Part shown: positions 7,697 to 61,965 of the stretch, piece by piece | How positions within the stretch are numbered: position 1 is the stretch's first letter | How the letters are laid out: every line of letters begins with the position of its first letter | Source: Candidatus Parcubacteria bacterium | Lineage (GTDB): Bacteria; Patescibacteriota; Minisyncoccia; Minisyncoccales; JAGMDC01 | Reading direction: 5' to 3' | Assembly: GCA_023128895.1 (NCBI GenBank) | Contig: JAGMDC010000003.1 | Span: 2,254-66,253 of the forward strand | Length of the DNA: 64,000 bases | The notes under the pieces: model-generated | What the model saw: only the letters and a program-made list of their open reading frames with translations | Database searches by the model: none | Told to the model about the DNA's origin: nothing | Translations under genes and position numbers: made by a program

Positions 7697-7721
7697 ATCC
7701 CGTATGGGTTCATTTTGGATT

Positions 7722-7760
7722 ATTGTGGCAAAGCCGCATAATTACTCGCTCGGAATAAAT
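7722..7760 (+). repeat. family-A element, truncated copy A2b, running into the murD start
   Basis: attgtggcaaagccgcataattactcgctcggaataaat is followed by GTG at 7761. Confidence 0.7.
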
Positions 7761-9068
7761 GTGAAAATAAAAAATTTAGAAAACAAAAAAATATTGATAT
7801 TAGGTCTTGGGCGAGAGGGGATAGATAATTTTAAATTTTTAAGGAAAATGTTTCCTAATAAAATTTTAGGGCTCGCGGACGCCAAAAGTTTGGAAAAATT
7901 AGAAGCTCGGGCAAGCGATTTGTTTAGAAAAGACAAAAAAAACAAACTTTATTTAGGCAAAAATCATCTGAATTTTTTGAAGCAATATGATTTTATAATA
8001 AAGTCCCCTGGAATACCATTCAAAAATATAGAGCGCTATATTACCAAAAAACAAAAAATCAGTTCGCAAACCGAAATTTTTTTTGAAAATTGTAAAGGAA
8101 CAATCGTCGGAGTTACTGGAACAAAAGGAAAAAGCACGACAGCATCCTTGATTTTTAAAATTTTTAGAACAGCTGGGATTAAAGCGCGTCTGGTCGGGAA
8201 CATTGGAAAACCAGTATTGTCTTTTCTGGAAAAATCAGGAAAAGATAATGTCTTTGTCTATGAACTTTCCTCGCATCAATTATGCGGATTAAAACATAGT
8301 CCGCATATCGCTGTATTTCTAAATATCTACAAAGAGCACCTTGATTATTATAAAAATTTTAAAGAGTATATTAAGGCGAAAGAAAATATATCGCGCTGGC
8401 AAAATAAACAGGATTATTTAATCTACAACGCAAAAGACAAAATCGTATCAAAATTTGCGCAAAAATCAAAAGCGAAAAAAATCCCTATTAGCCAAATCAA
8501 TTTCAAATTAAACAATACGCCCTTGCTTGGAAAGCATAATATTCAAAATATATCCGCGGCTATGGAAGTGGGAAAAATCTTTAAAATTCCAAAAAAGAAA
8601 ATTATTTCAGCGATAGAAAATTTCAAACCTTTGGCGCATCGTTTGGAATTCGTTGGTGAGTATAAAACGATAAAATTTTATAATGATTCTTTGTCAACTA
8701 TCCCGGAAACCGCTATTGCGGCTATGGATGCTTTGGGAAAAGATGTAGAAACAATTATATTAGGCGGATCTGATAGGGGACAGGACTTTACTGAATTATG
8801 TCAAAAAATTATAAAAAACAAAATTAAGACATTAATTTTGTTTCCTCCAACTGGAGAAAGGATATGGCAAAAAATTTCCAAATTAAAACACAAAAATCCT
8901 GTAAAACATTATTTTGTTAATAATATGAAAACAGCGGTAGAATTGAGTTTCAAACATACTGGAAAAGGGAAAATATGTTTAATGTCTCCAGCGTCTCCAA
9001 GTTTTAGCATTTTTAAGGATTACAAGCACAGGGGAGATTTATTCAAAAAATATATCAAAAAACAATGA
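7761..9068 (+). CDS. murD: UDP-N-acetylmuramoylalanine--D-glutamate ligase
   Basis: N-terminal Rossmann segment [12 protein letters not shown] and Mur ligase P-loop [11 protein letters not shown]. The start is uncertain: GTG 7761, ATG 7704 or ATG 7668, the latter two lying inside repeat sequence. Confidence 0.85.
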
Positions 9069-10243: not shown

Positions 10244-10248
10244 GATCT

Positions 10249-10414
10249 AAGAGACGGTAGGACAATATGCTTTCGTAGCGAGATTTTCAAAATTTCAGGC
10301 AAATTTTTCAAACAATTTTTGAAACCTATATAGAATATAAGTTGAGAAAATTTTTGGGAAATTTGACCAAATTTTGAAAATCACAGTAGAAATGATATTG
10401 TCCTACAGTCTCTA
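10249..10414. repeat. family-B long-hairpin (MITE-like) element, copy B1
   Basis: Terminal inverted repeats agagacggtaggacaatat / atattgtcctacagtctct and long complementary arms. The central about 110 bp is nearly identical to 22316..22430. Confidence 0.8.
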
Positions 10415-10422
10415 TAATAACC

Positions 10423-17303: not shown

Positions 17304-18233
17304 TTACATTAGCAACCAGTCCCCTTCTATCTTGGCTTTTTTCGGTAAAATCCAAGGAATATTAAATCCTGAAAAATAAACAATTTTTGTGAACAATTTT
17401 GAAAAAAATATTTCTCGCGCGAAAAATTTTTTTACTGCTTTTTCATAAGCAAAAAAATCAGGAAAATGTTTTATTAACAAATCACAGGTTTTTAAGCCCC
17501 AAATTACCCCTCCCCCGCTCCAGGGCTTAGTGCCTGCAATTGCTTCCCCACAGAGCGTTATGACGCCATTATGCGGCTCTGAAAGGCCTTGAGATACTAA
17601 ACTAGCAGATATCTTATCTAATTTTAGGTTATTTTTAAATAAAAATTCTTGGAAAATTTTGCGCGCTTGCTGTTTATTTGACATAATGCCATACTCTATT
17701 TCTTCGCCTCTGGGAATTTTCCAAATAAACCCGTCTTTTACAGCCCATGTTTCCACAAAATTTGAATTATCCTGCTTATCTACAAATCCCTGAATTGCCA
17801 AACGTAAGTCATGCTCCCGCAAATTCAAATTTTTTAGCGTAAATGACTTTGCTCCGTCACATCCGATAATTCTGTCAAAGCCAACTGGTAAAGCATCTAT
17901 TCTGCGATTTAAGACAATTTTAGCTCCGGCATTCTCTGCATATCGCGCGACTAATTTATCCAACTCAAAATGGTTCATTACAAAAAATGTATCAGAAAAT
18001 GAAACTTTAACGCTTTTTTTCGGAAAATGTATTAAAGTATAATCAATTTCATTTTGTATCAATTTTTTGCTTTGGGGAATATGAGCAAAAATTCTCTGGG
18101 AAAAAAGTCCTGAACAGGTTTGTTTGCCTATTTCCTTTTTCTGCTCAAAAACTGTAATGTCTTCGCCTTTTTCGGCAAGCTTCCATGCTAAATAAAGTCC
18201 GCACACTCCCCCGCCAATAATACCAATTTTCAT
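17304..18233 (-). CDS. FAD-dependent oxidoreductase, geranylgeranyl-reductase-like
   Basis: N-terminal dinucleotide-binding motif MKIGIIGGGVCGLYLAWKLAEKGEDITVFE. Length is 309 aa. Confidence 0.65.
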   Translation of the reverse strand: MKIGIIGGGVCGLYLAWKLAEKGEDITVFEQKKEIGKQTCSGLFSQRIFAHIPQSKKLIQNEIDYTLIHFPKKSVKVSFSDTFFVMNHFELDKLVARYAENAGAKIVLNRRIDALPVGFDRIIGCDGAKSFTLKNLNLREHDLRLAIQGFVDKQDNSNFVETWAVKDGFIWKIPRGEEIEYGIMSNKQQARKIFQEFLFKNNLKLDKISASLVSQGLSEPHNGVITLCGEAIAGTKPWSGGGVIWGLKTCDLLIKHFPDFFAYEKAVKKFFAREIFFSKLFTKIVYFSGFNIPWILPKKAKIEGDWLLM

Positions 18234-18311
18234 AATTATGAGTGAGGAATAAATGTAAAAATGAATTTTTACATTTATTCCGAGCGAGTAATTATGCGGC
18301 GTAGCCGCAAT
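18234..18311 (-). repeat. family-A element, copy A4, abutting the ATG of the 17304..18233 gene
   Basis: On the minus strand: attgcggctacgccgcataattactcgctcgg-aataaatgtaaaaattcatttttacatttatt-cctcactcataatt-ATG. Confidence 0.85.
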
Positions 18312-18318
18312 AATTTTT

Positions 18319-22244: not shown

Positions 22245-22249
22245 ATTCT

Positions 22250-22460
22250 TATAATGAGAGTGTAGAATAATATCTTTCGCCCGCCCGCATCGCTACGCGA
22301 AGCGTTGCGGGCGGGTAGCGAGAGTTTCAAAATTTGAGGCAAATTTTTCAAATAATTTTTGAAACCTGTATAGAATACAAGTTGAGAAAATTTTTGGGAA
22401 ATTTGACCAAATTTTGGAAGTCGCAGCAGAAAGGATATTGTTCTACACTCTCATAATAGC
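22250..22460. repeat. family-B long-hairpin element, copy B2, carrying a nested 36-bp GC-rich palindrome
   Basis: Terminal inverted repeats tataatgagagtgtagaataatatctttc / gaaaggatattgttctacactctcataata. The interior matches B1 except for an insertion at 22280..22315. Confidence 0.8.
22280..22315. repeat. family-C 36-bp GC-rich palindromic mini-element nested in B2
   Basis: cccgcccgcatcgctacgcgaagcgttgcgggcggg lies between ctttcg and tagcgag, which are contiguous in B1. Confidence 0.85.
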
Positions 22461-26400: not shown

Positions 26401-26471
26401 TACCCCCAGAAGGAATCGGACCCTCGTTAACTGCTTAAAAGGCAGCTGCTCTACCACTGAGCTATGGGGGC
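26401..26471 (-). tRNA. tRNA-Lys (anticodon UUU), no encoded CCA
   Basis: Hand-folded cloverleaf: GCCCCCA TA GCTC AGTGGTA GAGC A GCTGC CTTTTAA GCAGT TAAC GAGGG TCCGATT CCTTC TGGGGGT A. It has a G1-U72 pair, and the T-loop reads TCC rather than TTC. Confidence 0.75.
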
Positions 26472-28398: not shown

Positions 28399-29417
28399 AA
28401 TTCAATTTTTGAGCGCTGATTAGACCATTTGACTAACTCCTTCATTTCCACAAAACGCGCTTCCTGCGTTATGGCCCCTAAAATGACATTTACAATATAA
28501 TCCCCTTTCCTATTTTTATTAACCAATAAAACACATCCTTTTGCTTCGTCAGTATATCCTGTTTTGCCTCCGACAATATTTGGAATCTGCGCGAGCCACT
28601 CGTCGTCGTTATGGCAAATTTCATAATTCGGGTCTAAAAGTTTATTTTTATTTTTAACAAAATGGTGCAATTGTCCAGAACCATTGCCTGCCTTAAAAGA
28701 CATTTTTTTGGAAATTTCAAAAATTTCTGGATAGCGCTGAAGAATAATTTTGCTTAATTTTGCCAAATCTTTGGCGCAAGAAACATTTTTTGGTTCTTCT
28801 AAATTTTCCGGGTCAAGACCAGTGGAATTTACAAAAAAAGTATGAGCAAGCAGTAAATTCTTTTCTGCTTCCAAATTCATCAGACCAACAAACGGTTCTG
28901 TTTGCTCCCCCATCACCTCGCTCAAAGCGTATGCCGCGTCATTGCTGGATTCTATAAGTATAAAATGCAAGAGATTTTCAATAGAAATTTTTTCTCCCCA
29001 TCTTAACTGGCCAAAATTTTCTTCTTGGCTTACTGCTTTTTTGGATATTGCAACCGGTTTGGAAAAATCATAATATTCAGGATATTTAAAAACCATATAC
29101 GCTACCATTAATTTAGTCAAAGAAGCAATAGGTAAAATCTGTTCGCTGTTTTGCTCAGAAAGAACCTCTGAATTTCCCTGCTCGTCTATTTTGATTGAAA
29201 TATATGATTTTGCTTTAATATTCGGCTCTGAAAGTTCAGATATTAATTCCTGCTTATGCTGCTTAATAGAATTTTCAAAAACAGCATTTTGCTGTTCTAT
29301 AGGAGCGGAAATTTGGGCAAAAAAATAATTCTCTAAATTTTCTTCCAAAACATTGGCGCCATAGAAAAAGAATAAACTAACTATTACTGAAACAAAAAAG
29401 ATTTTTATTAATTTCAT
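28395..29417 (-). CDS. D-alanyl-D-alanine carboxypeptidase (S11 penicillin-binding protein)
   Basis: SxxK (ASLTKLM), SxN (ESSND) and KTG (GGKTGYT) motifs. 4-bp overlap with mraY. Confidence 0.8.
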   Translation of the reverse strand: MKLIKIFFVSVIVSLFFFYGANVLEENLENYFFAQISAPIEQQNAVFENSIKQHKQELISELSEPNIKAKSYISIKIDEQGNSEVLSEQNSEQILPIASLTKLMVAYMVFKYPEYYDFSKPVAISKKAVSQEENFGQLRWGEKISIENLLHFILIESSNDAAYALSEVMGEQTEPFVGLMNLEAEKNLLLAHTFFVNSTGLDPENLEEPKNVSCAKDLAKLSKIILQRYPEIFEISKKMSFKAGNGSGQLHHFVKNKNKLLDPNYEICHNDDEWLAQIPNIVGGKTGYTDEAKGCVLLVNKNRKGDYIVNVILGAITQEARFVEMKELVKWSNQRSKIEL

Positions 29418-29495
29418 AATTAGGAGCGAGGAATAAATGTAAAAATGAGTTTTTACATTTATTCCGAGCGAGTAATTATGCGGCTTTGCCGCAAT
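29418..29495 (-). repeat. family-A element, copy A5, abutting the ATG of the carboxypeptidase gene
   Basis: On the minus strand: attgcggcaaagccgcataattactcgctcgg-aataaatgtaaaaactcatttttacatttatt-cctcgctcctaatt-ATG. Confidence 0.85.
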
Positions 29496-29500
29496 ATTTG

Positions 29501-30886
29501 TTACTTCGCAATTTTAATATGTAGCTCTTTTAATTGCTCCTGCGTCACTTCGCTTGGAACACCCATCATTAAATCACGATTGTCTCCTGTTTTTGGAAAA
29601 GCAATAACTTCTCTAATATTCGGTTCATTCAGAACCACTGATAAAAATCTGTCTATGCCAGGCGCGATTCCTCCATGAGGCGGCACGCCGTAGCTAAACG
29701 CTTCAAAATAATTTTTAAAATTCTTTTTAATATCTTCTTTCTTATGGCCCAAAACCTCAAAAACAGCGGTAAGAATATCTAAATCTATTGTTCTTAAACT
29801 TCCTCCTCCTATTTCATATCCATTTAGTACAAAATCATATTGATAAGCCAAAATGTCTTTTGGACTTTTCTTTATTTCTTTAATATCCCGCGTTTGCGGC
29901 ATTGTGAAAGGGTGATGCATTGCTCCCCATTTTTTATCTCCTTTCTTGTATTCAAACATTGGAAAATCAGTGATAAAAGCAAAAGCTAGTTCATTCGGAT
30001 CTTTTTTATTTTTCCTTAAATCCGGCTTATCACTCTTATATTTGCCCATCGCTTCTTTGTAAGTCATACGGAAAAAAGGCGTTTTAGCAATTTTTTTGTC
30101 TGGAAATATTTTTTTAACTAAATTTGTATAAAGTTCTTCTGTTAAATTTAAAATTTCTTCTTGGGATGTAAAACTCATCTCAACATCCAATTGCGTATGT
30201 TCCGCTTGTCTGTCCCCGCGAGGATCTTCGTCGCGCAAACATCTTGCTATCTGGAAATATTTTTCGATTCCAGCCACCATTAAAAATTGCTTATACTGCT
30301 GAGGGCTTTGCGGCAGGGCAAAAAACTGCCCTGACCCAGTCCGCGAAGGAACCAAAAAGTCCCTGGCTCCTTCTGGAGTGGATTTAGTTAAAATAGGCGT
30401 TTCTATTTCAGTAAATTCCTGCTTTATTAAAAAATCCCGCATAAAGTGAATAACTTTCTGGCGGATTCTTAGGTTGTTTGCCATACGTCCGCGCCTTAGA
30501 TCAAGATAACGATGTTTTAACCGCTTTTCTTCGTTTATTTCAAACCCGGAAGTATCAATAGCAAAAGGTAATGTTTTGGCTTCTGATAAAATTTTGAGAT
30601 TTTCCGCCTTAATTTCTACTTTTCCAGTTTCAAGTTTTGGGTTTATCATACCTTTGGGCCTTTTCTTGACTTCTCCTGTTATTTCAATAACCCATTCCGG
30701 CCTTAATTTTTCTGACAAACCACAGGGCTCGCATTTTGAAGTAAAAACAATTTGAGACAAACCGGTTCTGTCGCGAAGGTCAATAAAAATAATCTTTCCA
30801 TGGTCTCTTCTGGAATTCACCCAACCGCAAAGTTTCACAGATTTTCCTATATGTTTGTTAAGTTCTTTGTTTAATACTCGTTTCAT
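29501..30886 (-). CDS. aspS: aspartyl-tRNA synthetase, bacterial-type sequence but lacking the GAD insertion domain
   Basis: FFALPQSPQQYKQ, motif 2 CLRDEDPRGDRQAEHTQLD and motif 3 GIAPGIDR. Only 461 aa: SDKPDLR is followed almost directly by FITDFPMFE. Confidence 0.9.
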   Translation of the reverse strand: MKRVLNKELNKHIGKSVKLCGWVNSRRDHGKIIFIDLRDRTGLSQIVFTSKCEPCGLSEKLRPEWVIEITGEVKKRPKGMINPKLETGKVEIKAENLKILSEAKTLPFAIDTSGFEINEEKRLKHRYLDLRRGRMANNLRIRQKVIHFMRDFLIKQEFTEIETPILTKSTPEGARDFLVPSRTGSGQFFALPQSPQQYKQFLMVAGIEKYFQIARCLRDEDPRGDRQAEHTQLDVEMSFTSQEEILNLTEELYTNLVKKIFPDKKIAKTPFFRMTYKEAMGKYKSDKPDLRKNKKDPNELAFAFITDFPMFEYKKGDKKWGAMHHPFTMPQTRDIKEIKKSPKDILAYQYDFVLNGYEIGGGSLRTIDLDILTAVFEVLGHKKEDIKKNFKNYFEAFSYGVPPHGGIAPGIDRFLSVVLNEPNIREVIAFPKTGDNRDLMMGVPSEVTQEQLKELHIKIAK

Positions 30887-31325: not shown

Positions 31326-31380
31326 AATATTAATATATGTATAATATTGCGACCTTTATTTTTGTTTTACAATTTTATTA

Positions 31381-31584
31381 TTGCGGCAGAGCCGCATAAT
31401 TACTCGCTTCGCTATCAATTATTGCGGCTTCGCCGCATAATTACTCGCTTCGCTATCAATTATTGCGGCTTCGCCGCATAATTACTCGCTTCGCTATCAA
31501 TTATTGCGGCTTCGCCGCATAATTACTCGCTCGGTTTAAATACAAAAATGAATTTTTGTATTTTTCCCCTCACTCGCAATTATA
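31381..31584 (+). repeat. family-A element, copy A6, with its first module amplified to four tandem 41-bp units; no downstream gene
   Basis: attgcggc occurs at 31381, 31422, 31463 and 31504 (period 41 bp). It is followed by ctcggtttaaatacaaaaatgaatttttgtatttttcccctcactcgcaattATA, where ATG is degenerate. Confidence 0.85.
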
Positions 31585-31626: not shown

Positions 31627-32919
31627 TCAGAAATCTGAAACTATATTGTAAATGCTCCCAGCGCCCATTATTACAACAATGTCATTTATATCGATTTTTT
31701 CCTTCAAAAATTCGGGAATTTTTTGGAAATCCTGTATAAAATGAACTTTGTTCCCTCTTTTTCCCACTGCTTTTGCTAATTTTTCTCCATTTACTTTTTG
31801 AGCGATTCCCTCATCTCCCCTGCCCGCGACATCATAAATTTCAGTCAAAACAATTTCGTCTGCCTCATCAAACGCCTTTACAAAATCATCAAACAAGTAA
31901 AATGTCCTTTGATGCTGATGCGGCTGGAATACAACCCAAATTTTGTTTTCAGGAAATTTTTCTCTAACGCCGGATATACAGGCCTTAACTTCTGTGGGAT
32001 GATGCGCGTAATCGCTTATCAGGATAAAAGGTTTCGGACTATTAATTTTAGTAATATCGCAGCGGCGCCAGCACCCGGTATATTCTGACAGCGCAAGGAA
32101 ACTTATTTCATCTGGAATTTTTAATGTTCTTGCGACTGCAAGCGCTGCCAGCGCGTTATAAACATTATATTCCCCCTTCACCTGTAAAATTTCCTTCAAT
32201 CTCCTTGCTTCTTCTTGTTCAATTGAAAACTTTTTGATTTTGTGTTTTGTATTTAATATCCGAAGGATATTATTGTCGTCCCCATTAACAATTAAAACTC
32301 CATCTTCCGGCAATTTATTAACAAACTTCTCAAACGCTTTAATAATATTTTCCAAATTTTTATAATAATCAAGATGGTCTGCTTCTATATTGTTTGCAAC
32401 AATAATATCAGGAGAATAATTCAAAAATGATTCTTCGTGTTCGCACGCTTCTATAAGCAAGTATTTTGACTTGCCAGCGCGAAAATTACTGTTTCCAAAT
32501 TCTTTAAGTTTTGTGCCAACAATCACTGTCGGATCTAATCCTGCTTTGATTAAAAGCAAAGCCAGCATTGATGTGGTAGAACTTTTGCCATGCGTGCCGG
32601 ATACAGCAATTGTAAAATGCTCTTTTGTTAAATTTCCAAGCGCTTGCGGGTATGACAAGCATTTAATTCCTAATTTTTTTGCCTGCGCAAACTCTGGATT
32701 ATCTTCCTGGACAGCGGGGCTGTAAATTACTAAATCAATATTTTCTACAATGTTTTTCGCTTCCTGCCCAATGAAAATTTTTGCTCCTTGCTTTTCAAGC
32801 ATTTCAGTAATCTCCGAACCACTCAAATCAGAACCAAAAACCTGGTCTCCTTTTTTAAGATAATACTGGGCAAGCGCACTCACGCCTATCCCGCCAATAC
32901 CAATAAAATAAATGGTCAT
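31627..32919 (-). CDS. murC: UDP-N-acetylmuramate--L-alanine ligase
   Basis: IGIGGIGVSALA and GTHGKSSTT. Confidence 0.9.
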   Translation of the reverse strand: MTIYFIGIGGIGVSALAQYYLKKGDQVFGSDLSGSEITEMLEKQGAKIFIGQEAKNIVENIDLVIYSPAVQEDNPEFAQAKKLGIKCLSYPQALGNLTKEHFTIAVSGTHGKSSTTSMLALLLIKAGLDPTVIVGTKLKEFGNSNFRAGKSKYLLIEACEHEESFLNYSPDIIVANNIEADHLDYYKNLENIIKAFEKFVNKLPEDGVLIVNGDDNNILRILNTKHKIKKFSIEQEEARRLKEILQVKGEYNVYNALAALAVARTLKIPDEISFLALSEYTGCWRRCDITKINSPKPFILISDYAHHPTEVKACISGVREKFPENKIWVVFQPHQHQRTFYLFDDFVKAFDEADEIVLTEIYDVAGRGDEGIAQKVNGEKLAKAVGKRGNKVHFIQDFQKIPEFLKEKIDINDIVVIMGAGSIYNIVSDF

Positions 32920-33548: not shown

Positions 33549-34460
33549 ATGATGGAACCTAAAAAATCAGATTTTGGAAAACAAGAGATTAAAAAATGTC
33601 CAGAGTGCGGATGCAGATATCTAATAACCAGCGATAAGGAAATTTACTGTTCTGGCTGTGGATTAGTGATTGCGGAAAATATAATTGACCTTGGCCCTGA
33701 ATGGCGGGCTTATGATGCTGAACAACACCAGTCAAAAACAAGAACCGGCCCTTCAATGAACTGGCGATATTATGATAAAGGATTGTCAACAGCCACGCCG
33801 CTTGCAAATAAAATACCAAACATCCGACAACCGCGCATTTCAGTCCAAGCAGTGTCAAAAGAAAAAACTTTAGCATTTACTCTTTCGGAAATGCACAGAA
33901 TATGCTCAGCGCTTCAATTACCAGATATAACAAAAGAAGAAGCAGCGAAATTATGCCATAATACGCGGAAAAAAAATCTATTTAGAGGTAGAAGAACAGA
34001 AGCAATAGCAGCGGCAATTGTTTATATCGTCTGCAAAGAACAAAAAATATCCAGAACGCTTTCAGAAATAGAAAAAGTATCAAGGGTGAAACAAAAAGAA
34101 ATCAGAAGAACTTATATATTCTTGCAAAAAGAGCTCAAATTAAAAACCAGACAAATTTCCAGCGCTGAATTAATACCGCGCTACTGCTCTAAACTCGGCT
34201 TGAACAGTCAAATAGAAAAATCGGCAAGAGAAATAATTAACAAAGCAGAAGAACAAAACTTAACCGATGGTAAACGGCAAGCAGGAGTCGCTGCCGCAGC
34301 AATTTATATCGCATGCTTTTTGGAGAGTACACATCGCACGCAAAAAGATATATCTCGGGTTGCAGGAATAACAACGCAGACACTCAGCACAAGATACAAC
34401 GAAATATCAAAAAAATTACAAATTAGAGATATGTATTTAATTCTGGACAAAAAAATATGA
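33549..34460 (+). CDS. TFB/TFIIB-family transcription initiation factor homolog
   Basis: N-terminal zinc ribbon CPECGCRYLITSDKEIYCSGCG. B-reader/linker signature IDLGPEWRAYD ... YDKGLST. Two cyclin-like repeats follow. Length is 303 aa. Confidence 0.8.
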   Translation: MMEPKKSDFGKQEIKKCPECGCRYLITSDKEIYCSGCGLVIAENIIDLGPEWRAYDAEQHQSKTRTGPSMNWRYYDKGLSTATPLANKIPNIRQPRISVQAVSKEKTLAFTLSEMHRICSALQLPDITKEEAAKLCHNTRKKNLFRGRRTEAIAAAIVYIVCKEQKISRTLSEIEKVSRVKQKEIRRTYIFLQKELKLKTRQISSAELIPRYCSKLGLNSQIEKSAREIINKAEEQNLTDGKRQAGVAAAAIYIACFLESTHRTQKDISRVAGITTQTLSTRYNEISKKLQIRDMYLILDKKI

Positions 34461-34495: not shown

Positions 34496-35620
34496 CTAAC
34501 AAATTATTCCACCTCCCAAGAGGTTTTCGCGAATATAAAAAACAACGGACTGGCCAAAAGTTATCGCGCGCTGGGGCTTATTAAACACTATTTTGTAATT
34601 TTTACCTTTGCTTTGATATTTCAAAATAGCAGAGGCGGGTTCGTGATGATAGCGAATTTTCGCTTTTACCCTCAAAGGCATTTTTGGTTTGTTTCCAGAA
34701 ATCCAATTAACATTTTCAGCTACAAGTTCTTTTTTATCTAATTCTTTTTCCTTTTTCGTAACGAATAAAATATTTTTCTTTATATCTTTTCCTGAAACAT
34801 AATAGGGACCGCCTGGCAAGCCAATGGATTTTCTTTGCCCAATTGTGTAAAAACACAAACCCTGATGCTCGCCGATAATTTCATTTTTTTGGTTCAAAAT
34901 TTTTCCCGGTTTTGATTTGATATATTTTTTTAAAAAAGCATTAACATCTTTGCCGATAAAACAAATATCCTGGGACTCTTTTCTTGTAAATCGCGAAATG
35001 CCAATTTTTTCAGCGATTTTCCCCGCTTCTTTTTTAGTATAATTTCCTAAAGGAAACAAAATTTTCTCTAATTCTTTTTGTTCTAACATCCATAAAAAAT
35101 AGGACTGGTCCTTGCTTCTGTCCTTTGCTTTCAACAATTGATATTCGTTACTCTGTGCTTTTTGTCGCAGGCGGGCCTGCCCGCAATGCTTCGCGTAGCG
35201 TTGCAGGCGAGCCTGCCCGCAATGCTTCGCGTAGCGTTGCAGGCGTGCGTAATGTCCGGTTGCGACGAAGTCAAAATCAATTTTTAATTTTTTAAGTTTT
35301 TTCACCAATAAATCAATCTTAATTTCTTTATTGCAGATAACGCAGGGATTAGGGGTTGTCCCCTGCTTAATTTCTTTGATAAACCTGTCAATAATTTTCT
35401 TTTTGAATTCTTTTTTAACATCTAAGACCAAAAATGGAACATTTAATTTTTTACAAATTTTTTCTGCGCGGATTTTTGCTTTTTGGAATTCCTTTGAATC
35501 AAACAAATCCAAAAAAACACCAACAACATTATATCCCTTTTGCTTTAACAAAAAACACGCAACACCAGAATCTTTTCCTCCTGACATTGCGCAAATAATT
35601 ATTTGATTTTCGCTTCTCAT
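34496..35620 (-). CDS. mnmA: tRNA-specific 2-thiouridylase
   Basis: PP-loop CAMSGGKDS, ATGHYAR and KDQSYFL. Contains an in-frame tandem repeat ARLQRYAKHCGQ x2. Confidence 0.9.
   Translation of the reverse strand: MRSENQIIICAMSGGKDSGVACFLLKQKGYNVVGVFLDLFDSKEFQKAKIRAEKICKKLNVPFLVLDVKKEFKKKIIDRFIKEIKQGTTPNPCVICNKEIKIDLLVKKLKKLKIDFDFVATGHYARLQRYAKHCGQARLQRYAKHCGQARLRQKAQSNEYQLLKAKDRSKDQSYFLWMLEQKELEKILFPLGNYTKKEAGKIAEKIGISRFTRKESQDICFIGKDVNAFLKKYIKSKPGKILNQKNEIIGEHQGLCFYTIGQRKSIGLPGGPYYVSGKDIKKNILFVTKKEKELDKKELVAENVNWISGNKPKMPLRVKAKIRYHHEPASAILKYQSKGKNYKIVFNKPQRAITFGQSVVFYIRENLLGGGIIC
35175..35246. repeat. two tandem family-C 36-bp GC-rich palindromes inside the mnmA coding sequence, in frame
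   Basis: gcctgcccgcaatgcttcgcgtagcgttgcaggcg(a/t) occurs twice. Its reverse complement is closely similar to 22280..22315. Confidence 0.85.
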
Positions 35621-35643: not shown

Positions 35644-36405
35644 TCACAATTCTTTCACTATTTTCGCGAATTCATTGGGATCCAAAGACGCGCTGCCGAC
35701 TAATACGCCTTGAAATCCAGCATCTTTGACAAAACTCGCTACATTCGCGCTGTTAACGCTCCCTCCATAAAGTATTTGAATTTTTTTAGCGGTTGGCTGT
35801 GAATATTTTTGCGCAATAATTTTTTGTATAAGCAGGCGCGCAACGCACGCTTCGTCAGAAGAGCAGGCCTTTCCCGTGCCAATTGCCCATCTTGGCTCAT
35901 AAGCAAAAACTATTTTCCCAATTTCTTTTTTAGAAACTTTTTTCAGCGCGTTTTCTATCTGAGACCTTAACACAATGGAAATTTTTCCTTTTTCTTTGTC
36001 TTCTTTTGTCTCGCCTATGCACAAAATCGGGATTAAACCAAAAGACAAAATCGCTTGAACTTTTCTGTTTATCATTTGGTTTGTTTCATTAAGGAACTTC
36101 CGCCTCTCGGAATGCCCGACAATAATATACTTGCATCCTAAATTTTTTAACATTATTGGCGAAACCTCGCCAGTATACGAACCCTTACCTTCCCAAAAAC
36201 AATTCTGGGCTCCTAATCTTATTCGCGTTTTCTTTCTTCTTAATAACAATTCAGATAATTTAGGAAGATAAATAAACGAAGGGCAAACCACTATTTCCGC
36301 TTTTCTGATTTTTCGCAATCCTTTATTCAATAACTTAAAAAGCTCTTCAGCTGATTTTGCTGTTAATAAATTGCATTTCCAATTTGCGATAATCAATGTC
36401 TTCAT
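35644..36405 (-). CDS. tpiA: triosephosphate isomerase
   Basis: IIANWKCN, VGHSERR and YEPRWAIGTG. Confidence 0.9.
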   Translation of the reverse strand: MKTLIIANWKCNLLTAKSAEELFKLLNKGLRKIRKAEIVVCPSFIYLPKLSELLLRRKKTRIRLGAQNCFWEGKGSYTGEVSPIMLKNLGCKYIIVGHSERRKFLNETNQMINRKVQAILSFGLIPILCIGETKEDKEKGKISIVLRSQIENALKKVSKKEIGKIVFAYEPRWAIGTGKACSSDEACVARLLIQKIIAQKYSQPTAKKIQILYGGSVNSANVASFVKDAGFQGVLVGSASLDPNEFAKIVKEL

Positions 36406-36506
36406 AATTATGAGTGAGGGAAAAATACAAAAATGAATTTTTGTATTTTAACCGAGCGAGTAATTATGCGGCTTTGCCGCAATAATTATGCGGCTTTGCC
36501 GCAATG
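36406..36506 (-). repeat. family-A element, copy A7, abutting the tpiA ATG, with its first hairpin module duplicated
   Basis: On the minus strand: attgcggcaaagccgcataatt x2, then actcgctcgg-ttaaaatacaaaaattcatttttgtattttt-ccctcactcataatt-ATG. Confidence 0.85.
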
Positions 36507-36513
36507 TTTACAA

Positions 36514-57751: not shown

Positions 57752-58441
57752 TTAAAAATTCGTTTTTGCATCTCCATAAATTCCAGTTTTATAAGTCTGA
57801 ACATTTAATAAAAAATCAAAATGATATTTCTGACTAAAATCACTTTTTATTTTTCTCACTAATTTTTGAAAATTAGAAGGGTCGGCTGGTTGATTGTAAG
57901 TAAAAATCCAAATAATCCCTTTATCATTCAAATTTTCACCCTTATTCTTTTGCTCTTTCGTAGACTTTATTTGTTCTAAAGATTTTTTTACTTTCTCGTT
58001 TATTCTTTTTTCCCCAATAGAAGAAACAAACTTAGCCTCACAATATATACAGAATTCGCCTAGTAATAATTCGAAATCACACATTTGAACATTTGATTCA
58101 GTCAATTTGGTTAATACTTTATTATTTAGCTTGTATCCCCTTATTATATGCTTTGCTAAATCAATTTCAGCAAAATGATCTCCTACTTTTTTGACAGCCT
58201 GCTCTTCTGATAATGAAACGCTTAATTCATTTTTAAATCCTAACAAGGTTTCGAAATTTTTAATGCATCTGTCATATTCCATTATTAATTTCTTGTCATC
58301 TTGTATAAAACCTTCCCAATCATTTTTTAAAAGCATAACAACCTCGCTGTTGCTTTTTGTAATTGCTAAAAATTGATCTAATGAATTTTGTGCTATTGCC
58401 TTGAGATATCTAAGTCGTTTATTATTTTTTTCATTTTTCAT
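57752..58441 (-). CDS. hypothetical 229-aa protein with a possible PD-(D/E)xK nuclease motif
   Basis: CDFELLLGEFCIYCEAKF (D-x12-E-x-K). The ATG at 58441 overlaps the end of a mod remnant. The track start at 58450 is GTG. Confidence 0.5.
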   Translation of the reverse strand: MKNEKNNKRLRYLKAIAQNSLDQFLAITKSNSEVVMLLKNDWEGFIQDDKKLIMEYDRCIKNFETLLGFKNELSVSLSEEQAVKKVGDHFAEIDLAKHIIRGYKLNNKVLTKLTESNVQMCDFELLLGEFCIYCEAKFVSSIGEKRINEKVKKSLEQIKSTKEQKNKGENLNDKGIIWIFTYNQPADPSNFQKLVRKIKSDFSQKYHFDFLLNVQTYKTGIYGDAKTNF

Positions 58442-58586
58442 AAAATTCACTATTTAATTTCTTATCTCCTTCGCTCACTTTAAAATCTCTGTCCTTAATC
58501 TCACTCAAATTTACATAAAGCTGATTTTTGTTAAGGATATCAAAAAGGGAACGTTTTTGTTTGGCAACGGGAAGTTTTTTAAATTC
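58431..58586 (-). pseudogene. remnant 2 of a Type III mod 3' end (51 codons plus stop)
   Basis: Translates as EFKKLPVAKQKRSLFDILNKNQLYVNLSEIKDRDFKVSEGDKKLNSEFYEK-stop. 41 of 51 residues are identical to the Mod C-terminus. A TAG lies immediately upstream. Confidence 0.85.
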
Positions 58587-58637
58587 CTATCAGCCGTGTT
58601 TTTAAAATTCTTCGGTGATTAGTTTTTGGATTTGATA

Positions 58638-59378
58638 TTATAATCGCCTCTCTAATAATTTTTTTTGGTCTCCCTGTAATACTTGTTCGTTAGGATTTTC
58701 CCAGCCAAAAAATTGAAAAGTTTTTATTACTTTTTCAAGTGAATAAAAATCAAATTTAGCTATCAAATCGTCTTTCTTGTATATTTCAGAAAAAGGTATC
58801 TTTCCGTTATCAAAATTACATATATAAGGCGACCATAAATCCCTGTCCCGGTCCCAAGTAAATAACAATCTATCTTTTACATCATTCAATTCTATTATTA
58901 TTTCAAATTCGTTCACATCTTCATATTCTTTCAACTGAGCCAAGTTAGATGCAAACAAATATATTTCAGTAAATTTATAAACGGTAGATACCGTTTCAAA
59001 AAATTTATTTATATCTTTAGCTTTATCTTTATTAAAAGCAAAATCGGATTTTATTTCATCAGCTTTTTGTTTATCAATAATATAATCTTCCTTCATAGAA
59101 AAAATATGCGCGAATTGTCCGCTTGTTATAAATTCCCAATACTCAATATACCCCTCAAACTTACATTCATTGCTTATCGCATTCTGCTCTATAATTTTAA
59201 TATCATTCCTGCTTATATGTGGATAATACCAACCACGCAAACGCACCTGATTATCTTCAATAATTTTCGCTAATTCTGAAATATCAAAACGATCAACCCT
59301 ATAAAAAGGTTGAGTAGGTCTAATTACTACTCGCCAATATCCCTTTTGCTTAATTATTTTTTTTATATCTTCGTTCAT
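58638..59378 (-). CDS. hypothetical 246-aa protein, translationally coupled to the AlbA_2 gene
   Basis: ATGA overlap with the upstream gene. No motif recognised. Confidence 0.55.
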   Translation of the reverse strand: MNEDIKKIIKQKGYWRVVIRPTQPFYRVDRFDISELAKIIEDNQVRLRGWYYPHISRNDIKIIEQNAISNECKFEGYIEYWEFITSGQFAHIFSMKEDYIIDKQKADEIKSDFAFNKDKAKDINKFFETVSTVYKFTEIYLFASNLAQLKEYEDVNEFEIIIELNDVKDRLLFTWDRDRDLWSPYICNFDNGKIPFSEIYKKDDLIAKFDFYSLEKVIKTFQFFGWENPNEQVLQGDQKKLLERRL

Positions 59379-60007
59379 ATTTTTAATTCTTTATCAAAAG
59401 GATTAACCCCTTTGCCCTTAATAATTGAATAGCGGCGAAGTGTTTCTTTTTCAAATTTTTTATAAGTTCGCTCAATCAATTCCTGCCATTCATGTATTGT
59501 AGATATTTCTTTATTTCCAATATTTGACTTATTTCTTATATAAAGCGCTCCTGTCCTCAAGCTAATATTATTATTAAAAGCTTGGATACTTTGATTTTTT
59601 AATTCTTGATTCCCTATATAAACCAATGGAAACTCTTTGCTTTCTGAAACCTGAATAAACACAAACTTTTTTACTTTTTTATCTTTAGTATCTAAATGTT
59701 CAAATTTTTCAACTTTACACTGAATCGGCTGATTACCCCTGCCTGTGAGATATTGATTGATTTGATCGTGTGAATATGAATTATAATTATTATCATCAAG
59801 ACCCTCTCGTGTGCCATCGTCTTTTGCTCCTACTACAATAATCCCACCGCCTCGCTCATTAGATAAAGCAAAAATAGTTTCTACTATTTCAAGCATTTTC
59901 ACCCTGTCAGACCAAGCAACATTACCTTTATATTCAAGATAAACTTCTTCTTTACCGTGATACAGAGCGATTTTTAAATTTTCTGGAATATCGTTTATAT
60001 AACTCAT
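59375..60007 (-). CDS. AlbA_2 (Schlafen-like) domain protein
   Basis: EEVYLEYKG ... IVETIFALSNERGGGIIVVGAKDDGT matches the AlbA_2 E-x-L-E-[FY]-K ... AfaN..GG.l..GV.D.G pattern. The ATG at 60007 is preferred; the track start at 60052 lies in a mod remnant in another frame. Confidence 0.7.
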   Translation of the reverse strand: MSYINDIPENLKIALYHGKEEVYLEYKGNVAWSDRVKMLEIVETIFALSNERGGGIIVVGAKDDGTREGLDDNNYNSYSHDQINQYLTGRGNQPIQCKVEKFEHLDTKDKKVKKFVFIQVSESKEFPLVYIGNQELKNQSIQAFNNNISLRTGALYIRNKSNIGNKEISTIHEWQELIERTYKKFEKETLRRYSIIKGKGVNPFDKELKI

Positions 60008-60011
60008 ATAT

Positions 60012-60110
60012 TTATTTTCCATAAAACCCCTCGTTAATCCTTTTATCTCCATCGCCGACCTTAAAATCTTTATCCTTAATCTCGCTTAAATTTACATAAA
60101 GTTGATTTTT
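60012..60110 (-). pseudogene. remnant 1 of a Type III mod 3' end (32 codons plus stop)
   Basis: Translates as KNQLYVNLSEIKDKDFKVGDGDKRINEGFYGK-stop. 26 of 32 residues are identical to the Mod C-terminus. The stop is followed by 4 nt and then the ATG of the next gene, as at the real mod end. Confidence 0.85.
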
Positions 60111-60155
60111 AAAATCGCTATTAAATTGCTCGTAAAAAAATTACTGGGGCACAAT

Positions 60156-61961
60156 TTATGAAAATTTTTTGGAGACAAACTGAAAAATTTTTTCGAATTT
60201 TTTAAGCGTACCGTCGTTTAACTTAAAATCTCTGTTATTAATAAACAAATCTTGTATTGCAGTATTAAATTTTGATTTATTAAAACCGGTTTCTTTTTTG
60301 TGCTCTGGAAATAAATTTTGTATAATTTTAATTTGTTCGCTATCAGTAAACAGATCTTCAGTTTTTAAATTATCAAACTTTTTATCAATGTCTTGAAGAA
60401 TAAAAATCTTTTTTTCTAATTCAATGCCAATGTCATTTATATATCTTTTTTGTTCTTTTCGTCCTTGATTGTCTGCGTCAAATATGGCTATAAATTTTTT
60501 ATTCCAAGATAAATATAACCTAAAAAGTTCATCATATTTTGAAACTCCTGCACCGGGATAAAAATTTAAATCAAACTTATTTTTAAAAAACTTATTCTGA
60601 ATATATTTGAAAGTATAATAATCATTTTTCCCCTCAGTACACACTATATTAGGAATTTGTTCTAAATCACTGGGACAATAATGTATCGAATCTAATATGG
60701 GCTGAAAATAATCTTTTTCATCAGGATATCCGGCAACAAAATTTTTATACAATATCGCTTTGATATCGGTTTTGCTTTGATTAAATGCTTCGTCGTTTTT
60801 ATAATTAATAGCTTCATTTTTTATGATATAAGTACCTGATAAAAATTTTGGGTTGATCAAATGATGGCTGTGTGTAGAGTAAATTAACTTACATTTATCA
60901 GTAAGTTTTTCGAATAAATTAAGTAATTTTTTCTGTGAATACTGATGTAAATTGCTTGCAGGTTCATCTAATAAAAACAAAGTTTCTCCTTTATCGTCTG
61001 CTCTTTCTTTTCTAAATTCGGTAAAAATTAAAAAACTAAAAAACCATCGAAAACCGAGGCTTCTTTCTCTTATATAATATCTATCAGCACCTTGTTTAAT
61101 TTTTAACTCTATATAATACCCCTTATTGTCTTGACCAGTTATTAACTCTATTTGCTTGTTGCTTTTTTCAAATATTTCTTCCCAACTTTTAAAAATCTTA
61201 TTTGTTAATTTTTCACTAACCTGTCCCAATAATGCATCTAGAGCTTCCTTGTCTTCACTTTCACTACTTTCTAACCTATTTAAAATATGGTCATTAACTA
61301 TTAAAGTGTTGTCAACTGAATTTAATATATCTTGCAATACTGCTCGGTATTCTTCCTGCTCAATACTCTCGCCTTCATATTTTTCTAAATAAATTTTTTG
61401 CGGAAAATCAAATAGAAAATTTTCATAATAAACGATCTTTGGAAAAAGATTTTCTTTTATTTTTTTAATGACTTTAATCCATTTATCTCTATCTTTATCA
61501 TATAAGCGACTATCCTTTTTAGCTCTTTCTTTTTTACCCAATAAATTAATATTCCAAGTCGAACTAGGAGACTCTTCTTCGCATTTAGAATTTTTAAATT
61601 TATACTCTTTTGTATAAATTATCTGTCCAACATCTTGAGCTAAAATAAAGCGTCTTTCGCCATTATTTTTTTCATTGCAAAATTTTTTTATTTCTTTCTC
61701 GTCTTCAGCATCTAATTCTAATGTTGCAAGAACGGATATGCTACCATTAAAATTTCCTTTTTTGCTTTTATGTATCATTTCGTGTGCATGATCTCTGTTA
61801 ATATTATTATGTAAAAGATTTATTGCTTCCAGTATAGAGGTTTTTCCACTTTCATTTAAACCGACGAAGGTAAAAATATTCGCTTTTGGTAATTTTGTTA
61901 AATCTATTTCTATTTTTTCTATTCCTTTATAATTTTTTATTGTAAATTTTGTATATTTCAT
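60156..61961 (-). CDS. OLD-family-like ABC ATPase with a C-terminal Toprim-like domain
   Basis: Walker A GLNESGKTS, signature-like SLGFRWFF, Walker B LFLLDEPASNLH, and H-loop STHSHH. C-terminal VCTEGKNDY ... AIFDADNQG (E...DxD). Confidence 0.75.
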   Translation of the reverse strand: MKYTKFTIKNYKGIEKIEIDLTKLPKANIFTFVGLNESGKTSILEAINLLHNNINRDHAHEMIHKSKKGNFNGSISVLATLELDAEDEKEIKKFCNEKNNGERRFILAQDVGQIIYTKEYKFKNSKCEEESPSSTWNINLLGKKERAKKDSRLYDKDRDKWIKVIKKIKENLFPKIVYYENFLFDFPQKIYLEKYEGESIEQEEYRAVLQDILNSVDNTLIVNDHILNRLESSESEDKEALDALLGQVSEKLTNKIFKSWEEIFEKSNKQIELITGQDNKGYYIELKIKQGADRYYIRERSLGFRWFFSFLIFTEFRKERADDKGETLFLLDEPASNLHQYSQKKLLNLFEKLTDKCKLIYSTHSHHLINPKFLSGTYIIKNEAINYKNDEAFNQSKTDIKAILYKNFVAGYPDEKDYFQPILDSIHYCPSDLEQIPNIVCTEGKNDYYTFKYIQNKFFKNKFDLNFYPGAGVSKYDELFRLYLSWNKKFIAIFDADNQGRKEQKRYINDIGIELEKKIFILQDIDKKFDNLKTEDLFTDSEQIKIIQNLFPEHKKETGFNKSKFNTAIQDLFINNRDFKLNDGTLKKFEKIFQFVSKKFS

Positions 61962-61965
61962 AATT

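Follow-up and report, generated by a model that had tools for sequence, protein, structure and literature searches.

Tandem 36-nt units in the mnmA gene of a Candidatus Parcubacteria bacterium are probably copies of a very small non-autonomous mobile DNA element

We analyzed a 64,000-nt stretch of DNA from Candidatus Parcubacteria bacterium (GCA_023128895.1, contig JAGMDC010000003.1, positions 2,254 to 66,253, forward strand; hereafter 'the window'), in which the tRNA 2-thiouridylase gene mnmA contains two tandem GC-rich units of 36 nt each. We consider it likely, with a probability of about 0.8, that these units represent a very small mobile DNA element, non-autonomous and 36 nt long (sister elements are mostly of 39 nt); it may be mobilized in trans through single-stranded DNA (ssDNA). 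The element is a discrete block that has been gained or lost recently, is found across phyla, inserts without target duplication, and both tolerates translation and is filtered by it. The host gene and the units within it are as follows.

34496..35620, minus strand: mnmA (tRNA 2-thiouridylase), the host gene; 374 amino acids, frame intact, conserved motifs kept
35212..35247, minus strand: Unit A, 36 nt, nearer the 5' end of mnmA; sense sequence CACGCCTGCAACGCTACGCGAAGCATTGCGGGCAGG; nhmmer E = 8.7e-12
35176..35211, minus strand: Unit B, the second tandem 36-nt copy; sense sequence CTCGCCTGCAACGCTACGCGAAGCATTGCGGGCAGG; nhmmer E = 5.2e-12
35166..35175, minus strand: ancestral target sequence; sense CCCGCCTGCG, ARLR codons; resembles the left arm of the element

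Read on the plus strand, the two units (35176-35211 and 35212-35247) are GC-rich sequences of the form CCTGCCCGCAATGCTTCGCGTAGCGTTGCAGGCG[A/T]G in a window with a GC content of 34.6%. The first-pass annotation of this DNA had already reported two tandem, in-frame 36-bp units here, and its coordinates (35175-35246) are off by 1 nt, which is within the boundary ambiguity. The ARLR codons of the target (GCC CGC YTG CGA) resemble the left arm of the element, and this accounts both for that ambiguity and for the partial third 'copy' in the Tandem Repeats Finder result (35167-35245, period 36, 2.2 copies, 97% matches). The 374-amino-acid open reading frame (ORF) was identified as MnmA by three Pfam domains, PF03054 (3.6e-62), PF20259 and PF20258. 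As also proposed in that annotation, the units encode a duplicated peptide (ARLQRYAKHCGQ, twice) between the conserved ATGHYAR and KDQSYFL blocks, adding 24 residues directly after ATGHYAR, so that the linker between the blocks spans 43 residues, compared with 19 in the closest insert-free ortholog. Unit A is translated as (A)RLQRYAKHCGQ(A), and Unit B differs from it by one base, at position 2, which is the wobble base of an Ala codon and is therefore synonymous. A 25-nt core matched the window three times with up to three mismatches, against 0.00 matches expected from 100 dinucleotide shuffles. Moreover, the mnmA DNA with both units was assembled identically in two other samples (L001 and L002), which excludes a one-off assembly error.

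The best homologs of the window MnmA are MnmA proteins of Parcubacteria, which belong to the candidate phyla radiation (CPR). We compared the ortholog genes at the codon level and obtained a site series at one nucleotide position. The site is empty in L006 (P0004; 72-75% identity to the query), where it reads CAT TAC GCC CGC TTG CGA CAG; it contains one unit in L003 (90% identity) and two units in the window, L001 and L002. In L004 (85%), there is one unit with a second 36-nt element nested exactly at its centre (GCTACG^CGAAGC), and this inner element is of a different subtype, identical at 34/36 positions to the copy that lies at 22280 of the window. The MnmA gene of L005, which comes from a separate study and whose product is only 52% identical, has a unit that is 34/36 identical at the same nucleotide position, with flanks that diverge at once. 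Given that orthologs at 66-75% identity lack the 24 residues and that the 90% ortholog has one unit only, the added segment is not an ancient conserved part of MnmA. The target CCCGCCTGCG predates the insertion, because it is found in insert-free orthologs. The first-pass annotation described the element as 'inserted twice'; two units are indeed present, and they fit two insertions and a single insertion with later duplication in tandem equally well.

Solved structures of MnmA show the segment that follows ATGHYAR as a short hairpin of approximately 10 residues, and the insert maps to the start of this hairpin. The AlphaFold model gave predicted local distance difference test (pLDDT) scores of 31-37 across the insert, and at residues 122-187 it is too uncertain to say more than 'surface or disordered'. 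The structure mapping and the low pLDDT suggest that the insert forms an outward loop at a surface position that tolerates it, with the ARLRQ strand restored on its 3' side. Compared with the consensus of the family, the units in the window are degraded, with a changed position 2 and a C17xA25 mismatch, and their predicted ssDNA folds are weak (-8.7 and -8.2 kcal/mol). Together with the synonymous-only difference between them, these features make the two mnmA units look like decaying relics.

Other Parcubacteria MnmA genes (L250, gene at 1501-2688; L251; L252) carry different in-frame mini-inserts that are GC-rich or form hairpins. Examples among them are CCCGCCTCCGCTGAAGCTACGGCGGGC, encoding GPASAEATAGK; a hairpin with a perfect 16-bp stem, encoding SDFLKEVRLP; and a GC-rich block of about 90 nt containing CCCGCGAAGCGGG.

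We also searched for the element outside this lineage, using a 22-nt core against one genome per species and, in metagenomes, the arms alone with the centre left free. The core scan gave at least 119 genome stretches and the arms-only scan at least 134 elements, both being lower bounds. The first-pass annotation had made further copies a test of its claim; many exist, in several phyla, and they are not confined to the CPR. Among the matches listed, the CPR hosts include Daviesbacteria, Moranbacteria, Nomurabacteria, Saccharibacteria, Paceibacterota and others, and the non-CPR hosts include Verrucomicrobiota, Kiritimatiellia, Lentisphaerae, Bdellovibrionales, uncultured Gammaproteobacteria, Terriglobales and Margulisiibacteriota. 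Long-read metagenome-assembled genomes (MAGs; at least five copies) and one single-cell genome are also represented, and the GC content of the loci ranges from 29 to 66%. In every case listed, the similarity ends at exactly 36 nt and the flanks are unrelated, while the element itself is near-identical across phyla. The 36-nt consensus is CCxGCCyGCA-TCGCTA[C/T]GCGAAGC[G/A]T-TGCx'GGCy'GG. Among 51 distinct copies, the first two bases are CC, TC or CG and the last two are GG.

With the centre left free, this sequence becomes part of a sharply bounded superfamily of mostly 36 or 39 nt, in which conserved arms (CCNGCCNGCA...TGCNGGCNGG) surround a short variable centre. The arms-only elements listed (at least 134) include 58 of 36 nt, 32 of 39 nt, seven of 40 nt, and six each of 32 and 38 nt. 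After strands had been collapsed, 53 of the 81 distinct centres among these matches gave a length divisible by three (p = 3.6e-9). One 39-nt variant with the same arms and the centre TTCCTCCCCAGACCCCTCC recurs with conserved flanks (aaggttcaaaaa / acggaagccgag, aaatcagccgag), often as inverted pairs (L141, L162, L184, L202, L212, L217, L227, L232-L235 and L245), and may be part of a larger composite repeat.

The element was found in four of 2.9 million viral contigs, all of high GC content and mostly in a non-coding context, and there was no match in PLSDB plasmids or GenBank phages. We therefore rejected a phage or plasmid as its vector. One of the viral contigs (L126, 60% GC) has at about 1619-1654 a 36-mer identical to the one mnmA unit that L003 carries (A11, C17, A25). 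A known RNA family was also rejected, as the sole Rfam match in the window is a tRNA at 26401-26471. A literature search by sequence, peptide strings and topic returned analogues and no description of the element; its coverage was incomplete, so that a prior description is possible.

Next, we considered the coding context of the copies. Read directly from the sequence, five of the six reading frames of the consensus contain no stop codon. In low-GC contigs, 39 of the 103 listed copies whose length is a multiple of three (approximately 38%) lie deep inside ORFs of at least 150 codons, compared with 0/16 of the copies of other lengths. Among the 46 clearly intragenic copies of the core-scan sample, 28 share one orientation and phase, in which they encode the small polar peptide PARNAS[H/R]SDAGG. 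The frame used in mnmA, R[L/P][Q/H]RYAK[H/R]CG[Q/R], accounts for five of the 46, and three of these are the mnmA copies themselves. The genes that host the element in frame include mnmA, a Mur ligase gene, the isoleucyl-tRNA synthetase (IleRS) gene, which has two diverged tandem copies, and the gene for ribosomal protein S9. These biases in frame and length imply translation of the copies and their filtering by selection at the protein level, as opposed to removal from the RNA.

To characterize the fold, we performed covariation analysis on two sets, one of 51 distinct copies from the core-defined sample and one of 32 distinct copies whose centres were not constrained by the search, with 500 shuffles. 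The simple palindrome register (position i pairing with 37-i) was rejected, as 485 of the 500 shuffles reached the observed covariation score, and its covariation was only weak in a later test as well. By comparison, none of the 500 shuffles reached the score of two offset 5-bp helices (1-5/28-32 and 5-9/32-36) combined with a 4-bp stem closing a GNA triloop (16-19/23-26). Pair 3:30 is seen as C:G, T:A and A:T, and pair 7:34 as C:G and T:A. In the set of 32 copies, a fold consisting of a 4-nt tail, an outer stem and a mini-hairpin pairs 94% of cells (0/500 shuffles reach its score), and all four pairs of the mini-hairpin show compensatory changes (e.g., 16:26 as A:T, G:C and T:A). The mirror hairpin (11-14/18-21) covaries too. 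Exchanging the strands turns one helix set into the other, there are two dyad axes about 4.5 nt apart, and for the commonest variant, the predicted minimum-energy ssDNA fold is the offset shape on both strands. Of the free 36-nt centres, 41 of 58 contain the motif GCGNAGC, and among 83 distinct centres it is present in 24, with 0.84 expected (arms-only matches listed); d(GCGNAGC) is a DNA-specific mini-hairpin with exceptional thermal and nuclease stability (PMC13037366). This analysis supports a structure with an offset stem, a 4-nt 5' tail and a GCGNAGC DNA mini-hairpin. The first-pass annotation described the unit as palindromic; the conserved structure is the offset fold and not a simple palindrome.

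Further sites of the same lineage show how the element comes and goes. They involve a repeat resembling a MITE (a miniature transposable element with inverted repeats) and a Mur ligase gene.

22280..22315, plus strand: third copy of the element, CCCGCCCGCATCGCTACGCGAAGCGTTGCGGGCGGG; nhmmer E = 1.2e-12; intergenic, within the MITE-like repeat
22249..22458 (approximate), plus strand: MITE-like repeat hosting the third copy; terminal inverted repeats, repeat family D5
10265..10284, plus strand: empty site in the paralogous MITE-like repeat, ATATGCTTTCG^TAGCGAGAT, junction between 10275 and 10276
32464..32485, minus strand: empty site of the 39-nt sister element, in the Mur-ligase ORF 31627..32919 (minus strand)

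The third copy is in the opposite orientation to the mnmA units and identical to them at 31/36 positions. It has the variant-A sequence of the family (the second commonest 36-mer), with perfect 10-bp arms. When it was compared with the paralogous repeat (about 10246-10420), the copy proved to be an exact insertion of 36 bp at ATGCTTTCG^TAGCGAGA, with no target-site duplication, so that the earlier description of a reversed and diverged copy inserted within a repeat was correct. The target, TCGCTA^CGAAAGC, resembles the element's own centre, TCGCTACG^CGAAGC. The host repeat is about 175 bp long with terminal inverted repeats (AGAGACnGTAGGAcAATAT...), and its two copies, which are 91% identical, are both intergenic, one between FtsW and MurG and the other between a peptidase and a membrane protein. 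A profile search with nhmmer found no further diverged copies in the window beyond these three. The Mur-ligase gene is the site of a 39-nt sister element (CCAGCCCGCA-TCGGCTACGCCAAAGGCGT-TGCTGGCGGG), which lies in frame. There are no copies at this site in the window and L002, one in L004 (7663-7701) and two in tandem in L001 (9975-10052). L001 and the window are 99.9% identical across about 17.5 kb and yet differ by these two 39-nt units, which indicates that the gain or loss was very recent.

In each of the three pairs of filled and empty sites (MITE, mnmA and Mur ligase), the filled site is longer by exactly 36 or 39 nt per unit, without target-site duplication. Among the matches listed, a flanking direct repeat is absent in 165 of 181 copies, with a small excess of short ones, and target-site duplication was accordingly rejected as a general feature. 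A TWYG-like motif was seen at the nested, MITE and mnmA sites only. Copies are nested at the dyad centre of outer copies, in either orientation, at eight loci (L004, L037, L049, L089, L106, L112, L118 and L160), and direct tandems occur in the window, L001, L035, L121 and L246. In L101, a MAG labelled Chloroflexota, in silico deletion of the element (about 1860-1895) restores a tRNA-Arg(CCG) gene, the insertion being a few bases 3' of the anticodon. The host assignment in this case is uncertain, because the contig is short and of low coverage.

These results show that the element is gained as an exact block at unrelated sites, including protein genes, a tRNA gene, other repeats, the centres of other copies and positions beside them. 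It may move via a single-stranded form, in which each strand would fold alike, with a 5-bp outer stem behind a 4-nt 5' tail and with a mini-hairpin of the GCGNAGC type. Mobilization would occur in trans, by an enzyme encoded elsewhere. Our leading guess for this enzyme, which is tentative and less likely to be right than wrong, is an HUH/Y1 single-strand transposase resembling those of IS200/IS605 or the REP-associated tyrosine transposases (RAYT). In mnmA, the element is read in the less common frame, RLQRYAKHCGQ; it entered at an arm-like target where a surface beta-hairpin begins, and is now present as two copies in tandem. Selection would then remove copies that break the frame or harm the protein, leaving copies of 3n length and benign frame in gene-dense genomes. 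A broader reading, to which we give somewhat less than even odds, is that these sequences form a superfamily, so far undescribed, that spans phyla and contains the smallest mobile elements known in bacteria (36/39 nt), moved as ssDNA, in which both strands form the same GNA-capped offset hairpin and in which lengths and frames are shaped for life in essential genes.

Several observations weigh against the proposal of a mobile element moved in trans. Base counts at positions -10 to +10 of the flanks are close to flat, with no conserved target motif, which is unlike IS200/IS605. Targeting of hairpin apices was rejected as a general rule, as 29% of the rebuilt empty sites had an apex at the junction against a background of about 25%; such placement is limited to nesting, the MITE site and perhaps mnmA. 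Among 5,164 clustered ORFs within about 4 kb of copies at 243 loci, no recurrent transposase-like family was found and the families were housekeeping only. No larger parent element bounded by two half-sites was found either, and the idea that the element represents the fused ends of a larger transposon was rejected, since few half-sites lie kilobases apart, and what lies between those is ordinary genes or inverted duplications. The enzyme, if any, is therefore likely to be encoded elsewhere. In both in-gene cases of the window lineage, the target resembled an arm of the element, and at the Mur-ligase site two bases beside the insert are changed as well relative to the empty allele (GCT to GCG, AAG to CAG); these arm-like targets and changed bases hint at a route assisted by homology or template switching. 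Each of the two in-gene inserts lies between direct repeats of about 9 nt, and slippage between these repeats could account for some of the polymorphisms as losses. In addition, the covariation is supportive rather than proof, because the copies are related and represent few independent events. The phylum assignments depend on MAG binning, and both large scans give abundance as lower bounds only.

Some of these points are what one would expect if there were no dedicated enzyme and the element were spread by replication and repair, with forks stalling at hairpins, templates switching at arm homologies, and slippage or unequal exchange producing tandems and losses. The mnmA target CCCGCCTGCG resembles the left arm and the Mur-ligase target GCTGGC the right arm, the latter with two converted flanking bases; the ~9-nt repeats, the commonness of tandem arrays, the small excess of short direct repeats at flanks and the lack of a transposase among the neighbours of the 243 loci also agree with it. 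However, most copies have canonical, identical termini and flanks unlike the arms, 165/181 have no repeat at all, and the MITE insertion has no more than 1 nt in common with the ends of the element. Template switching also predicts variable end points and not a fixed 36-nt block across phyla, so that we regard this explanation as improbable. About equally improbable is a double-strand recombinase that makes no duplication (a serine enzyme like that of IS607, a DEDD enzyme like that of IS110, or a tyrosine recombinase), for which the offset palindromes would be dimer-binding sites. The covariation of the palindrome alone fits a symmetric protein-binding site as well as a hairpin, there are two dyad axes and no target-site duplication, and the self-targeting of the element's centre and ends is typical of recombinases that recognize a site. 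Nevertheless, the GCGNAGC centre is conserved and its special stability is a property of ssDNA (PMC13037366), the targets are largely unrelated, unlike the site specificity of the IS110 type, and no shared crossover dinucleotide was present at the one cleanly resolved junction (MITE).

We also considered the possibility that the 24 residues are a selected, functional addition to MnmA, either a lineage-specific domain or a regulatory hairpin in the mRNA. The frame is intact, the protein is identical in three assemblies, and the tandem units are predicted to form a long, stable RNA hairpin (-47.6 kcal/mol, z = -5.1). The closest orthologs, however, vary between no unit, one, two and nested units; this DNA is also found in unrelated genes, between genes and in other phyla; elsewhere it is read in other frames; and the peptide is modelled with low confidence. 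A selected function is therefore very unlikely. Less likely still, to the point of being nearly negligible, is an artefact (adapter, chimera or assembly error) or a spacer-less repeat of the CRISPR type. A GC-rich 36-nt palindrome does look foreign in an AT-rich genome, and 36 nt is a common length of CRISPR repeats, but many laboratories and technologies have yielded assemblies that contain the element, among them long-read MAGs and a single-cell genome. Its copies vary with compensatory changes, show length and frame biases in ORFs and are polymorphic in populations, and there are no spacers, arrays or Rfam matches.

A small element mobilized in trans thus remains our preferred reading, and we compared it with known systems. 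Rickettsia palindromic elements (RPEs) are palindromic selfish DNA found in frame in unrelated housekeeping genes, in which the extra translated peptide is tolerated (PMC10969869, PMC3733652); they are about 150 bp long (PMC10969869) and end in a CGTC tag (PMC3733652). The present element likewise inserts in frame into unrelated ORFs that stay open. However, it is exactly 36 nt long (sisters mostly 39 nt) and not about 100-150 bp, it ends in CCNG...CNGG, and its hosts are CPR bacteria, Verrucomicrobiota and others, whereas RPEs are confined to Rickettsia. Thus, the likeness to RPEs proposed in the first-pass annotation holds for in-frame survival inside genes and does not extend to size, terminal tag or host range. 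Repetitive extragenic palindromes (REPs), taken together with REPINs, are GC-rich palindromes of 20-40 bp, also known from Verrucomicrobia, which are thought to be mobilized in trans by a single-strand HUH/Y1 transposase and of which a minority are intragenic (PMC3733652, PMC3116915). The element agrees with REPs in being a GC-rich palindrome of this size, but it has no terminal GTAG or CGTC, GTAG or CTAC being present in the central loop only. REPs are also species- or genus-specific, mostly vertical and mostly extragenic, whereas the element is near-identical across phyla and has 38% of its 3n copies in low-GC contigs within long ORFs. RAYT genes are often flanked by repeats in REP systems, and none was found within about 4 kb of copies at the 243 loci. 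The element behaves like RPEs and intragenic REPs but fails the tests for membership in either group.

In IS608, a guide tetranucleotide lies 5' of the stem, and this is the basis for comparing it with the 4-nt tail of the element. The likeness to elements derived from IS200/IS605 consists of this tail, the absence of target-site duplication and the hairpins that define the ends (PMC6006769). For the present element, the covariation supports a 4-nt 5' tail, a stem and a mini-hairpin on both strands. In contrast, IS200/IS605-type elements insert 3' of a fixed tetra- or pentanucleotide and have two separate end hairpins, whereas the flanks of the present element have no such consensus and the element is a single 36-nt double-register fold. 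It also differs from MITEs of DDE transposons, as there is no systematic duplication and no parent element with such ends was found, and from CRISPR repeats, as copies are solitary, directly tandem or nested and there are no spacers. The GC clusters of yeast mitochondria are GC-rich palindromic mobile units of about 30-50 bp in AT-rich genomes, present in frame in var1; their mode of movement is unsettled and short flanking duplications have been reported. They differ from the element in these duplications, in belonging to a eukaryotic organelle and in their unrelated sequence. The small dispersed repeats of cyanobacteria ('very small mobile repeated elements') are mobile, well below 100 nt (21-27 nt) and found in a single lineage. 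They nest both in one another and in other repeats, and are not known to colonize essential genes in frame.

If the proposal is confirmed, the lower size limit of bacterial mobile DNA would be 36 nt, and the element would offer a sharply defined substrate for finding the enzyme. It would also mean that the reduced, gene-dense genomes of the CPR still carry active selfish DNA, which survives through the compatibility of its length and frame with coding sequence, and that such DNA keeps supplying short inserted peptides to proteins such as MnmA, IleRS and ribosomal protein S9. The element explains odd GC-rich peptide inserts that make CPR proteins harder to align and annotate and their structures harder to predict. 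Sites still polymorphic between sequences of 99.9% identity may serve as population-level markers, and near-identical copies in distant phyla point to an unrecognized horizontal route.

The gene that adjoins mnmA is of separate interest. A 303-amino-acid ORF at 33549-34460 (plus strand) has a TFIIB zinc ribbon (PF08271, 4.8e-12) and two TFIIB cyclin repeats (PF00382, 3.4e-45). TFIIB is a transcription factor of archaeal and eukaryotic type, and the rest of the genome is bacterial (FtsW, MurG, Mur ligases). The ORF is kept beside mnmA in L001-L004 and is absent from L006. No link of TFIIB with Patescibacteria was found in the literature searched, and we speculate that the ORF may have been acquired from an archaeal host.

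The window also contains other repeats. In a second family, a unit of about 91 nt that ends with a small hairpin, GCGGC-NNN-GCCGC, is dispersed, and there are also a tandem array of 41-nt repeats (3.8 copies) and a tandem of 22 nt (31377-31531, 383-477, 7720-7783, 18228-18318, 29412-29502, 31501-31564 and 36400-36509). Because L001 and L002 both break at the 41-nt array with 100-nt gaps, and L002 also breaks at the 22-nt tandem, the copy number there probably varies. Finally, a 158-nt direct repeat occurs three times at 58429-62121 (63-81% identity, 1.6-2.0 kb apart) and probably reflects repeated domains or paralogous genes.

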